A stretch of 64,000 bases of DNA, from the IMG/VR virus record IMGVR_UViG_2585427970_000001. One strand, written 5' to 3'. Source of the DNA: a virus (Duplodnaviria; Heunggongvirae; Uroviricota; Caudoviricetes). The position numbers and the translations under genes were made by a program. Within the stretch, counting starts at the first letter, position 1; each line of letters starts with the position of its first letter. Below, one piece after another: positions 42,856 through 43,588 of this stretch. The notes beneath the pieces were generated by a model, which saw only the letters and a list, made by a program, of their open reading frames with translations, did no database searches and was not told where the DNA came from.

Positions 42856-42864
42856 ACACAACAG

Positions 42865-42936
42865 GTAAGGGTATTTTGCGACGTCGGAGATCGCCGTGCT
42901 TGGCAGAGGGTTCGAATCCCTACGAAGTACCCTTAC
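42865..42936 (+). ncRNA. tRNA-like structured element (non-canonical; lacks a clear anticodon arm)
   Basis: 10-bp closing stem ggtaagggta/tacccttacc enclosing gcga..tcgc hairpin and T-arm-like aggg-ttcgaat-ccct. Confidence 0.3.
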
Positions 42937-43087
42937 CGTTGTGATGAAGTGCAGCTCTTTGAAGCAACCAGAAGATAAGCATCTGGCTTCACAACATAAA
43001 CCGCAGGAACGACCAATAAACGGTAGTCCGTATGGAGAACACCCCGTTGAGGAAGAGGCCTGGCCGGAACCGTAACCGGCACTACAA

Positions 43088-43170
43088 CGTTGAGAACACT
43101 GGCGTAACGGGGTCATATCCCAATCTACGAATAAATGTTGCGTTGCAGCGTGACAACCAGTGTTCTCAAC
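43088..43170 (+). ncRNA. Structured hairpin element, copy 1
   Basis: 14-bp stem gttgagaacactgg/ccagtgttctcaac; inner cgta..tacg stem closing conserved loop acggggtcatatcccaatc. Confidence 0.3.
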
Positions 43171-43371
43171 ATTGTGGTGAATGCACAGGCTGATGTGCCG
43201 CAACTACAGTAGCGCGCTTTGTGGGGCTTGCTACAACCCTGTGTCGGAGTTCAGCACCGACCATCACAGTTTGATTCTCTGGCATGAGCATAACGCTGAA
43301 ATAAGTCCAGTCTGGTGCGGTCTGATCACCTGCCGTTAGCTCCACGAAACGGAGCACGTAACAGGTAAGAG

Positions 43372-43430
43372 CATTCTCCTGTAACGGGTTCATATCCCAA
43401 TCTACAGGTCCACCAAGAATGCTCTTTCCG
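43372..43430 (+). ncRNA. Structured hairpin element, copy 2
   Basis: Stem aagagcattct/agaatgctctt; inner cctgta..tacagg closing loop acgggttcatatcccaatc; stems differ from copy 1 but stay complementary. Confidence 0.3.
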
Positions 43431-43588
43431 TTGCGGTGAATGCGGCTAAGCGCATGCGGGGAAATGGTTATATCTGTCCATTATTTCTCCTTGTTTCCCC
43501 GCCCACGGTGGATAACCAGCCAAAGGACACTGGGAGGCACCCGGCACCGCAATCTAATAAATATGTCACTTTTATTGAGGGATAACCA

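Follow-up and report, generated by a model that had tools for sequence, protein, structure and literature searches.

Hairpins with an initiator anticodon arm-like core among plus-strand structured RNA modules of the P1 ban operon

The module array between tRNA-Thr and tciA

Positions 42857-43553 of the window (the whole stretch of viral DNA that was analysed, 64,000 nucleotides) correspond to the part of the P1 ban operon that carries plp and upl on the minus strand in the P1 reference annotation. We found that this region is a plus-strand array of structured RNA modules, in which three long hairpins (H0, H1 and H2) alternate with multi-branched modules, and that it lies after the phage tRNA genes and before tciA. 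The features are as follows, in order of position.

42780-42855, plus strand: tRNA-Thr (TGT), called by ARAGORN and by the Rfam tRNA model (74.9 bits)
42826-43203, minus strand: 125-aa plp ORF (P1 annotation), starting with TTG and sharing 30 nt with tRNA-Thr
42857-42943, plus strand: long hairpin H0, base helix CACAAC/GTTGTG, A bulge, 13-bp outer stem GGTAAGGGTATTT/AAGTACCCTTACC
42961-42990, plus strand: module X, a short hairpin GAAGCAACCAGA...TCTGGCTTC with 3' end CACAAC, read from the sequence
43063-43085, plus strand: small hairpin GCCGG-AACCGTAA-CCGGC followed by ACTAC, at direct repeat D9
43080-43179, plus strand: three-way-junction hairpin H1, from its fold, its score with covariance model R1 (below) and its pair counts
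43107-43125, plus strand: candidate anticodon-arm mimic of H1, AC-GGG-G-T-CAT-A-T-CCC-AATC
43166-43393, minus strand: upl-like ORF, 75 aa, intact in the window
43173-43268, plus strand: multi-branched module B1, closed by TGTGGTG/CATCACA, from its architecture across variants
43281-43356, plus strand: module Z, a linker common to unrelated Klebsiella and Cronobacter prophages
43357-43435, plus strand: hairpin H2, base helix CGTAAC/GTTGCG, outer stem GGTAAGAGCATTCT/AGAATGCTCTTTCC, inner stem CCTGTA/TACAGG
43384-43402, plus strand: candidate anticodon-arm mimic of H2, AC-GGG-T-T-CAT-A-T-CCC-AATC, with the anticodon-like CAT at 43391-43393
43430-43553, plus strand: multi-branched module B2, closed by GTTGCGGTG/CACCGCAAT, similar to Rfam STnc100
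43589-44023, plus strand: tciA (TerB-like), an ORF named tciA/terB in P1, P7 and D6
44298-44373: tRNA-CAU, called by ARAGORN and the Rfam tRNA model

The tRNA-Thr gene is directly 5' of the array and in the same orientation, and tciA is the nearest protein gene downstream. In P1 and P7, the C1-controlled ban operon includes the array region together with tRNA-Asn, tRNA-Thr and tRNA-Ile2, and this context suggests that the array is transcribed as part of the operon; no promoter or terminator consensus was found inside 42856-43588. An IS abuts tRNA-Thr in the window, so that the native promoter and operator of the ban operon are missing. Hence, expression from the window itself is uncertain. A literature search for P1 transcriptome data gave nothing useful, and since the CPS-53 prophage of E. 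coli K-12 lacks the element upstream of yfdP, K-12 transcriptome data are uninformative.

The content of the region is mosaic and is common piecemeal to many phages. Positions ~42926-43001 match Sashavirus, P22-like and other phages at 80-86% identity, and module Z (query positions 426-520) matches Klebsiella and Cronobacter phages at 83-87% identity. The small hairpin at 43063-43085 is similar to the tRNA-Thr 3' end (TAACCGGCAC) and lies at the junction 5' of H1; the two copies of D9 are at 42844-42853 and 43073-43082, and GCCGGAACCGTAACCGGC also terminates the class-3 units of lambdoid prophages.

Both multi-branched modules are built around closing helices. B1 shares its first bases with the 3' strand of the base helix of H1, its 5' hairpin is GCACAGGCTGATGTGC, and its 3' hairpin GTCGGAGTTCAGCACCGAC abuts the closing strand. 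The single-copy fold of B1 is no better than that of shuffles (z = -0.36); hence, the support for B1 is the family pattern only. B2 folds at -48.3 kcal/mol (z = -2.27) and serves as the 5' leader of tciA. It is related to the prophage sRNA STnc100, but below the Rfam threshold: it aligns to positions 31-147 of the 206 in model RF02076 with 30.6 bits (E = 3.8e-4), where the gathering score is 47. Hairpins and STnc100-like modules alternate along all 700 nt, which form a single modular array.

The first-pass annotation of this region, made from the letters and a list of ORFs, had found no credible ORF. This holds for coding signature and not for ORFs as such, because intact minus-strand ORFs of 125 aa and 75 aa are present. 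That the minus strand encodes the Plp and Upl proteins, as the P1 reference annotation has it, agrees with the window, P1, D6 and P7 all having intact ORFs of 125 aa and 63-75 aa. However, 35 variant events in relatives gave 14 synonymous, 19 non-synonymous and 2 stop changes in the plp frame, which does not set it apart from the remaining five frames (8-13 synonymous changes). The ORF ends shift with each mosaic variant, plp starts with TTG and overlaps tRNA-Thr, the P7 annotation has no CDS over the plp region, and RefSeq has no feature under the match among the matches listed. We consider the coding explanation hardly credible; plp and upl are probably spurious protein genes, and the P1 reference annotation, which overlays the RNA motif with them, needs correcting.

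A weaker C1-operator-like sequence had also been proposed at 43547-43564, just before tciA. By alignment, it has 6 mismatches to the 17-bp C1 operator consensus ATTGCTCTAATAAATTT, and the five C1 operator sites that the window holds at ≤3 mismatches are all elsewhere. A C1-operator-like site at 43547-43564 is not supported.

Folds, covariation and distribution of the hairpins

The repeated hairpin of the first-pass annotation is present, as are its inverted repeats. A 25-nt direct repeat lies at 43104-43128 and 43381-43405 (24/25 identical), with inverted repeats at 43080-43102/43157-43179 and 43364-43377/43416-43429, and a further inverted repeat at 42864-42876/42925-42937. The 19-mer ACGGGNTCATATCCCAATC within the direct repeat occurs exactly twice in the 64-kb window against 0.10 expected, and none of 100 shuffles reached two occurrences. 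RNA folding, which had been suggested as a check, gave plus-strand energies of -40.8 kcal/mol for H0 (z = -5.46), -49.2 kcal/mol for H1 (z = -6.80) and -34.7 kcal/mol for H2 (z = -6.75). For each of the three, 0 of 200 shuffles folded as well, and the plus-strand fold was better than the minus-strand fold by 4-7 kcal/mol.

We found H0, H1 and H2 to be one family of tRNA-like hairpins, in which an outer helix of 17-22 bp closes a junction. The outer helix of H1 (CACTACAA.GTTGAGAACACTGG / CCAGTGTTCTCAAC.TTGTGGTG) encloses inner hairpin 1 (CGTA-core-TACG, the core being the 19-mer) and inner hairpin 2 (TGTTGCGT-TGCA-GCGTGACA), and H2 has TCCACCA where the second inner hairpin would be. H0 carries the T-arm-like apical insert AGGG-TTCGAAT-CCCT at 42907-42921, which the R1 alignment sets at the position of the second hairpin. 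The interior fold of H0 is ambiguous, and for this reason we make no claim that its first inner hairpin is a tRNA-Pro-like anticodon arm. The tRNA-like element described in the first-pass annotation therefore survives in part: its T-arm-like GGGTTCGAATCCC is present at 42908-42920, but it is the third member of the hairpin family and not a separate element.

To our alignment of the hairpins, 32 distinct relatives contributed, in three stem classes that share no stem sequence. A MAFFT alignment across classes was rejected, as homologous pairs fell in different columns; it was replaced by a structure-guided alignment with gaps as N, which MAFFT preserved column for column. In this alignment, 96.2% of cells pair, compared with 36-45% for slid partners, although the cross-class alignment was derived from the structure and the percentage paired leans towards that structure. 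Changes on both sides were found in 19/32 pairs, and the covariation score was 0.491 compared with 0.156 for shuffles (0/500 shuffles reached 0.491). Corroborating these results, RNAalifold on 14 class-4 sequences independently gave the same three-way junction with 7 compensatory pairs. The earlier proposal that stems which differ yet stay complementary reveal selection on structure is much stronger with these covarying copies from related genomes, and the selected structure around the conserved core is most likely an RNA.

The pair counts also distinguish the strands. Across classes, G.U cells outnumber A.C cells by 73 to 15; hence, the plus strand is favoured. Point changes within classes show the same preference mildly (16 G.U and 10 A.C), the across-class counts being the clearer.

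Family membership was measured with a covariance model (R1) trained on lambdoid class 4 alone. R1 scored H2 at 39.2 bits on the plus strand (E = 7.3e-11) versus 11.8 bits on the minus strand, H1 at 32.1 bits (E = 1.5e-8) versus 17.6 bits, and H0 at 19.2 bits (E = 2.4e-4), above its reverse strand. In 893 kb of other prophage DNA, used as a control, the model found just two true class-4 copies and their reverse strands. Rfam scans of the window region, nine class-3 loci, the class-4 region and a Saccharibacteria locus returned nothing for the hairpins.

With the plus strand favoured, the element can be weighed against a DNA-level origin, that is, a recombination-boundary palindrome, a MITE-like repeat or a protein-bound cruciform. 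The stems are near-palindromic, which explains the weak reverse-strand matches of both the family pattern and the covariance model; copies are found at mosaic junctions, and the 25-nt repeat mediates deletions. All of this a DNA element could share, but not the strand asymmetry, which is seen in the G.U excess, in the fold energies and in R1 scores that are plus-biased for 3/3 hairpins. Moreover, the hairpins are always oriented as the flanking genes, their position in relatives is fixed relative to neighbouring modules and genes, the window has no dispersed copies beyond the three in the array, and the anticodon-arm reading given below is possible on one strand alone. We regard a DNA-level element as highly improbable.

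The hairpins belong to a large unannotated family that about half of complete E. coli genomes carry (2490/5426 at ≥95% identity), and the P1-like plasmids of a further 599 complete E. coli genomes carry the motif. The U38 and A38 forms of the core were each found in >120 viral contigs, and many EHEC, EPEC and Shigella strains would be expected to have the class-4 element. Unrelated stem sets surround the same core in P1-like phages, lambdoid phages and two distant environmental contigs. In at least five such sets, pairing is maintained while the enclosed core stays identical, and the core is found again in a MAG of Saccharibacteria and in a contig from groundwater. In genome-wide scans for the exact motif, most non-enteric matches had no flanking inverted repeat and fit chance (~17 chance matches are estimated for 18 fixed bases in 1.2e12 positions); among the non-enteric matches, only those at loci L251 and L257 are hairpins.

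Losses of the element occur as well. Natural recombinants that fuse the 5' half of H1 with the 3' half of H2, with both stems destroyed, account for 4/189 copies, and one variant (L117) has no GGG...CCC hairpin. Hence, the element is dispensable for the persistence of at least some prophages.

Such recombinants speak for the hairpins being functionless, as decayed tRNA genes or recombination scars whose stems persist only through the youth of the copies. The tRNA array is indeed variable (D6 and P7 have tRNA-Ser at the equivalent place), it holds junction sequences like tRNA 3' ends (D9), and its mosaic content is widely shared. However, covariation disfavours this origin, since unrelated stem sets pair around one core and more than half of the pairs have changed on both sides. 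In addition, neither ARAGORN nor Rfam RF00005, even at E 10, called a tRNA or detected a tRNA fragment in 42856-43588, H0 is a family member by R1, and the family is found in 2490 E. coli genomes. The plain decayed tRNA that had been allowed for as an explanation of the tRNA-like element thus finds no support, and we judge decay or scarring to be very unlikely for the family.

The conserved core and the initiator tRNA anticodon arm

The 19-mer had been described as the conserved loop of the hairpin. It is a conserved core, but it is itself a small stem-loop, in which three G:C pairs close a 7-nt loop N-U-CAU-A-U, and in sequence it bears the hallmark of the initiator tRNA-fMet anticodon arm. 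The conserved initiator signature is three consecutive G:C pairs in the anticodon stem, according to the passage of PMC11231383 that cites Mandal et al. 1996. In H1, GGG is at 43109-43111, the loop at 43112-43118, the anticodon-like CAT at 43114-43116, and CCC at 43119-43121. A T-arm reading of the 19-mer was rejected, since the loop has no T54-A58 pattern and fits anticodon-loop positions 32-38 with CAU and GGG/CCC.

We compared the cores with the anticodon arm of E. coli tRNA-fMet (UCGGGCUCAUAACCCGA) and found identity at 13/17 positions for both H1 and H2, and agreement at 15/17 positions for the class-4 core ACGGGCUCAUAACCCAA. In comparison, the window's own tRNA-CAU matches the cores at just 8-10/17 positions. 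The three GGG/CCC pairs (29-31 with 39-41) are invariant in 32/32 relatives and in 14/14 class-4 sequences, and U33, CAU and A37 occur in every copy. Lambdoid class 4 also has C32 and A38, and its loop, CUCAUAA, is identical to that of tRNA-fMet; in the window, position 32 is G or U and position 38 is U (GUCAUAU and UUCAUAU).

The mimicry is imperfect. Positions 27-28/42-43 would be A.A and C.A, and the stem is not a continuous helix of 5 bp; RNAalifold pairs A31 with U48, leaving C and AA bulged. AC/AAUC is a conserved internal loop, which a plain anticodon-arm mimic does not explain.

Candidate functions and relation to known systems

Our preferred reading, to which we give a probability of about 0.4, is that the array is a co-transcribed set of plus-strand RNA modules in which branches of H1 and H2 reproduce the initiator anticodon arm and act as mimics or decoys. 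As a first step, the operon transcript would be cut at or near the long helices, which have the right length for RNase III, and tRNA processing enzymes may help to cut it. The predicted outer helices (~21 bp in H0, 22 bp in H1, ~19 bp in H2 and 20-22 bp in class 4) agree with the two turns, or roughly 20 bp, of an RNase III helix. Cleavage would then separate the tRNAs, the hairpins, the STnc100-like modules and the tciA mRNA, and the released or exposed hairpins would mimic the initiator anticodon arm as decoy or bait for a factor that recognises this arm. Our best guess is that the hairpins, once freed from the transcript of the operon, would serve as a decoy or bait resembling a tRNA. The identity of the partner is speculative; we favour a VapC-type anticodon-loop nuclease that cleaves tRNA-fMet, with the 30S P site together with IF3, or MetRS, as alternatives. 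VapC toxins cleave tRNA-fMet and act on structures like anticodon stem-loops (PMC7180214), and phages generally seem to avoid encoding tRNA-fMet (PMC10264068).

The same helices could instead punctuate the transcript, as RNase III-type sites or protective stem-loops between tRNAs, sRNA-like modules and mRNAs, comparable to those of the T7 early RNAs and the lambda N leader; the likeness to an anticodon arm would then be a functionless leftover of a tRNA ancestor. A long outer helix does stand at every module junction, its 3' strand overlapping the first strand of the next module, and the family is found in 5' leaders and between cistrons, with 106/106 class-4 copies preceding a same-strand ORF within 200 nt. 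The outer stem also accepts many apical inserts, as hairpins with the GGTAAG stem hold 8 insert types besides the initiator-arm insert. However, it is the apical core that is most conserved and not the stem; the core is invariant across stem classes unrelated in sequence, extends to the Saccharibacteria MAG and the groundwater contig, and would not have remained identical amid changing surroundings as a leftover. Moreover, RNase III requires no specific apical sequence. Processing or stability punctuation is possible, but we hold it doubtful as the full account.

The sites of the relatives bear on a cis-acting role, in which the mimic would contact the 30S P site or IF3 and tune downstream translation, or in which the hairpin would be a put-like antiterminator acting on RNA polymerase. 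Class 4 separates the repressor terminator from the first early-left gene, and class 3 a Q-like gene from the lysis genes; in the groundwater copy, GGAGG and a start codon come next, and an SD-like GGAG or GGTG is found 3' of the hairpin. Such leader positions suit a cis-acting element, but the genes downstream are mutually unrelated, H1 and H0 in the window adjoin no start codon, and each locus has one match, the opposite early operon lacking the second copy that put and nut have there. A boxA/nut reading of the T-run 5' of class 4 was rejected because the T-run varies as the 3' arm of differing terminator stems. Identity with put RNA was likewise rejected, as we found no similarity to HK022 22-29 kb, a stretch that may not contain putL. 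A cis-acting leader is an unlikely function for the family.

Returning to the decoy reading, a more general form is that temperate enterobacterial phages, and at least some distant bacteria or viruses of these, encode an initiator-arm decoy on a hairpin scaffold, expressed from early or late operon leaders, that protects initiation from VapC-type PIN toxins or manipulates the 30S P site. The decoy would soak up anticodon-loop nucleases or be cut in place of tRNA-fMet. This generalisation is a conjecture, and we think it unlikely to hold.

Phage tRNA genes are now viewed as counter-measures to host nucleases that cut anticodon loops. An RNA that copies the initiator anticodon arm alone, beside phage tRNA genes, would, if true, solve the nuclease problem differently, and about half of complete E. 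coli genomes would hold an RNA counter-defence that has never been annotated. Whatever the function, a covarying RNA motif of 2490/5426 complete E. coli genomes is without an Rfam family.

The region also ties the ban operon of P1 to the "moron" regions of Stx and other lambdoid prophages, which are rich in sRNAs and contain the Hfq-dependent STnc100 and PasD. B2 resembles STnc100 in its closing helix, its first hairpin and its last hairpin (CYGGGAGGCACCCGG), and STnc100 and B2 both adjoin tciA/tciB-like genes and tRNAs in prophages (bioRxiv 10.64898/2026.05.13.724894). In contrast to canonical STnc100, with its TTGACT promoter and its terminator, B2 in the window has neither of its own. The H hairpins fall outside the STnc100 model, and 2/100 STnc100 loci hold such a hairpin.

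Like HK022 put and lambda nut, lambdoid class 4 is found in an early-operon leader, in this case the early-left one, directly following the repressor gene. The put RNA is a 70-nt V of two stems that occurs as a putL/putR pair (PMC9378689), whereas the family described here forms a three-way junction of 80-118 nt and is single at each locus.

A further likeness is to the anticodon stem-loop of tRNA-fMet (E. coli metZWV and metY), which has the three G:C pairs and the 7-nt loop with U33, CAU and A37. The hairpins differ from tRNA-fMet in having no cloverleaf, acceptor end or D arm, and in the AC/AAUC internal loop that flanks the helix. No Rfam Y-RNA or tRNA-like family was matched at E ≤10. Known tRNA mimics include the t-elements of plant mitochondria, the bacterial YrlA Y RNAs, which carry tRNA-like branches on a long helix, and the P1 C4 RNA precursor, which is processed by RNase P; these are non-tRNA RNAs in polycistronic transcripts or beside tRNA genes that are recognised by tRNA-handling enzymes. 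The t-elements, YrlA and the P1 C4 precursor copy the acceptor/T-arm half of a tRNA, whereas the hairpins described here copy the anticodon arm of one specific tRNA.

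A structured hairpin family on the plus strand

The repeats and inverted repeats that the first-pass annotation had claimed after tRNA-Thr lie where it placed them. We found that the three long hairpins of this region, H0 (42857-42943), H1 (43080-43179) and H2 (43357-43435), fold as plus-strand RNA at -40.8 (z -5.5), -49.2 (z -6.8) and -34.7 kcal/mol (z -6.8), each 4-7 kcal/mol better than its own reverse strand. The 19-mer conserved in H1 (43107-43125) and H2 (43384-43402) occurs twice in the window against 0.10 occurrences expected.

A search of viral contigs for the 19-mer yielded over 120 loci and a third hairpin class in lambdoid prophages (class 3), whose stems are entirely different from those of the two P1-type hairpins and which lies between a Q-like gene and lysis genes at the 2 loci examined. 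Further covarying copies, which the first reading had suggested looking for in P1-like genomes, were thereby found in relatives. In a structure-guided, cross-class alignment of 32 distinct sequences (gaps as N), standard pairs fill 96.2% of 893 cells, and sliding the partners lowers this to 36-45%. Both sides vary in 19 of the 32 pairs, and covariation scores 0.491, compared with 0.156 in shuffles, with 0 of 500 shuffles reaching the observed value. Because the alignment was built from the structure, these figures lean towards structure, and the slid-partner controls and the independent tests matter more as evidence than the percentage paired. G.U cells outnumber A.C cells 73 to 15, which favours plus-strand RNA.

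Searching for the A38 variant of the core, which defines class 4, brought in over 120 additional viral contigs. Members of class 4 form a three-way junction of 94-118 nt, and their outer stem (20-22 bp) shows covariation from variant to variant. RNAalifold returned the same architecture from 14 class-4 sequences with no structure supplied (33 pairs, 7 compensatory). R1, a covariance model built from class-4 sequences only, scored H2 at 39.2 bits (E 7e-11), H1 at 32.1 (E 1.5e-8) and H0 at 19.2 (E 2.4e-4) in the window, the plus strand better in all three; its sole hits in 893 kb of prophage DNA from elsewhere were the two genuine class-4 copies, each with its reverse strand. The hairpins are plus-strand structures belonging to one family, and its standing as a real structured RNA family is strongly supported.

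R1 aligns a T-arm-like hairpin of H0 at the second-hairpin position, so the modelled scaffold looks like a D-arm-less tRNA, in which a long "acceptor" helix carries one branch for the anticodon arm and one for the T arm; the interior fold of H0 is ambiguous. The tRNA-like element described earlier is H0, and its T-arm-like hairpin stands, but it shares the scaffold of H1 and H2 and is not a separate element.

Natural deletion recombinants in viral contigs, L038 and L013 (4 of 189 copies), over the equivalent of 43080-43435, run from the 5' half of H1 straight into the 3' half of H2. Their junction falls precisely at the 25-nt repeat that the two hairpins share, with the intervening module B1 lost and the arms non-complementary. 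At the H2 equivalent of viral contig L117 (window 43357-43435), the GGGTTCATATCCC hairpin is gone (cctgtaacaatctacagg) and the outer stems are kept. These recombinants, with both stems destroyed, and L117, without its core hairpin, count against a strict need for the element.

The hairpin core mimics the initiator tRNA anticodon arm

The 19-mer reads A-C-GGG-N-U-C-A-U-A-U-CCC-A-A-U-C, in which three G:C pairs form the stem of a 7-nt loop that has U in second position, a central CAU and A next. Judged by sequence, this core is the anticodon arm of initiator tRNA-fMet (UCGGG-CUCAUAA-CCCGA), an arm matched at 100% in 5426 of 5426 E. coli genomes. Three consecutive anticodon-stem G:C pairs are the conserved initiator signature, according to the part of PMC11231383 that cites Mandal et al. 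1996. The exact initiator loop was present in hairpin cores of the A38 variant (GGGCUCAUAACCC) at loci gathered for another purpose. Identity to the tRNA-fMet arm is 15/17 for class 4 and 13/17 for H1 and H2, and identity to the window's own tRNA-CAU is 8-10/17. That tRNA (44298-44373), called tRNA-Met(CAT) by ARAGORN, is the counterpart of P1 trnI, the tRNA-Ile2 that reads as Ile once modified with lysidine. It has the anticodon loop CUCAUAA in common with the class-4 mimic, and its stem lacks the three G:C pairs.

Of 5426 complete E. coli genomes, 2490 carry class 4, with annotation absent among the matches listed. In mEp460 and SfIV it follows the repressor-gene terminator and precedes the first early-left gene, and it also occurs in cdtI and Stx2c phages. 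No more than 200 nt downstream of every copy (106 of 106) is an ORF on the same strand, and these ORFs have at least 8 different N-termini. The P1-type array is present in 599 E. coli genomes, nearly always plasmid-borne.

The exact U38 (P1-type) core, with N = C, recurs in hairpins with new stems on two distant contigs. In L251, a Saccharibacteria MAG, the stems are GAGATATAGG/CCTGTATCTC (about 1760-1945, minus strand); this structured RNA (z -5.6) adjoins a masked N run and has a terminator at its end, shortly before aspS. In L257, a 0.1 µm groundwater metagenome contig, AACAATTA/TAATTGTT lie within a 16-bp outer stem upstream of an ORF (about 780-900, minus strand). Other distant core matches were rejected as members, having no flanking complementarity and a number that fits chance expectation. 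Rfam scans of the P1-type, class-3, class-4 and Saccharibacteria hairpins gave no family matches.

The modular array and its genomic setting

We read the module grammar from homologous stretches of P1 isolates, P7, D6, a Klebsiella P1-like phage and Enterobacter phage BUCT554, in which two kinds of module alternate. H modules are long hairpins with an ACAxxx/xxxTGT base helix, a 10-14 bp outer stem and a swappable apical insert; on GGTAAG-stem hairpins, 8 insert types were counted besides the initiator-arm insert. B modules are multi-branched and closed by a 6-9 bp helix (GYGRTG/CAYCRC), the first hairpin following an AAU linker and the last abutting the closing strand. The 3' base strand of every H overlaps the 5' strand of the next B module. 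The window runs H0, a short hairpin, a linker with a terminal hairpin resembling the tRNA-Thr 3' end, H1, B1 (43173-43268), a linker, H2, B2 (43430-43553, the tciA 5' leader) and tciA.

The array is a mosaic, since separate pieces match many unrelated temperate phages. The short-hairpin segment past H0 (42926-43001) has 80-86% identity in Sashavirus, P22-like Salmonella phages and other siphoviruses, where the rest of the region is absent, and may be another mobile small-RNA module. The linker ahead of H2 (43281-43375) has 83-87% identity in non-P1-like prophages (about 40 kb) of Klebsiella and Cronobacter. Equivalent arrays of D6 (L123, 1965-2051), P7 (L124, 1896-1982) and the Klebsiella phage (L125, 2649-2735) contain a tRNA-Ser(TGA), missing from the P7 annotation, and then a further hairpin that has this scaffold and a different insert. 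B2 scores 30.6 bits against Rfam STnc100, below the gathering score of 47. Lambdoid prophages encode STnc100 and PasD as Hfq-dependent sRNAs, and a canonical STnc100 copy brings its own promoter and terminator and is located past tciB-like genes or tRNAs.

The window is a P1-like element, and its stretch 42776-43552 is 98% identical to the tRNA-Thr to tciA interval of the P1 reference. In P1 and P7 the hairpin region is part of the C1-controlled ban operon, in the order promoter/operator, dicF-like region, tRNA-Asn, tRNA-Thr, hairpin region, tciA, tciB, tciC, tRNA-Ile2(CAU), ban. A consensus search found no promoter or terminator within the hairpin region, and we infer its transcription from the operon context. 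An insertion element lies upstream in the window.

Features of the insertion element upstream of the hairpin region
about 41466-42773, IS3-family element of IS1203/IS629 type, inverted repeats TGAACCGCCCCGG, abutting tRNA-Thr
42397-42723, minus strand, IS1203-type orfA
41510-42400, minus strand, IS1203-type orfB
42326-42442, ALIL frameshift pseudoknot of the IS1203-type element

P1 dmt, the ban operator/promoter, the dicF-like region and tRNA-Asn are missing upstream of tRNA-Thr (39000-42775; flanks compared over 39000-45000). Because the element adjoins tRNA-Thr and the P1 upstream operator region is missing from these flanks, expression of the window's copy is uncertain. A P1 RepA-like gene lies farther upstream (38658-39518, minus strand). 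Downstream, the tciA/tciB stretch 43553-44053 has no match to the P1 reference; the tciA start, to 43700, matches the P7, D6 and OP279344 (terB-type) versions, placing a mosaic breakpoint at about 43552, the end of B2.

The P1 reference annotates two minus-strand genes, plp and upl, over the hairpin region. Among 24 distinct equal-length variants of the shared core (35 variant events), the plp frame has 14 synonymous changes, 19 non-synonymous changes and 2 stops, no better than the other five frames (8-13 synonymous), and therefore carries no coding signal. Hence the earlier reading of the region as non-coding holds in that respect, yet its statement that no credible ORF is present does not, as both ORFs are intact in the window. 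The ends of the ORFs differ with each mosaic variant, the P7 annotation has nothing over the equivalent stretch, and RefSeq has no feature under the match in the 599 matching E. coli genomes, among the matches listed. In mEp460, two small minus-strand hypothetical proteins, gp36 and gp37 (L377, 2029-2582), overlap the beginning of the class-4 hairpin and a B module that P1 isolate OP279344 carries in identical form; like plp and upl, they may be annotation artefacts over RNA modules.

Candidate roles and known systems

RNase III could act on helices of this length, which makes predicted cutting of the polycistronic RNA at the hairpins plausible. The hairpins could also be a decoy or bait for a factor that reads the initiator anticodon arm, a mimic function favoured because the strongest constraint falls on the initiator-arm core. 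The predicted partner could be the 30S P site/IF3 or MetRS as alternatives to a nuclease. tRNA-fMet is a cleavage target of VapC toxins, which act on structures resembling anticodon stem-loops (PMC7180214), phages tend to leave tRNA-fMet out of their genomes (PMC10264068), and the P1 hairpin copies lie among phage tRNA genes; for these reasons a nuclease decoy is the most attractive candidate.

We considered the hairpins as tRNAs, STnc100, put or nut sites or an Rfam family, and none fits. No description of a phage initiator-anticodon-arm mimic was found in the searchable literature, where coverage is limited and an earlier description possible. The family is widespread, unannotated and strikingly and specifically like the initiator tRNA anticodon arm. 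In comparison with tRNA mimics and tRNA-like punctuation elements, the hairpins would work alike and differ in which part of the tRNA is copied.
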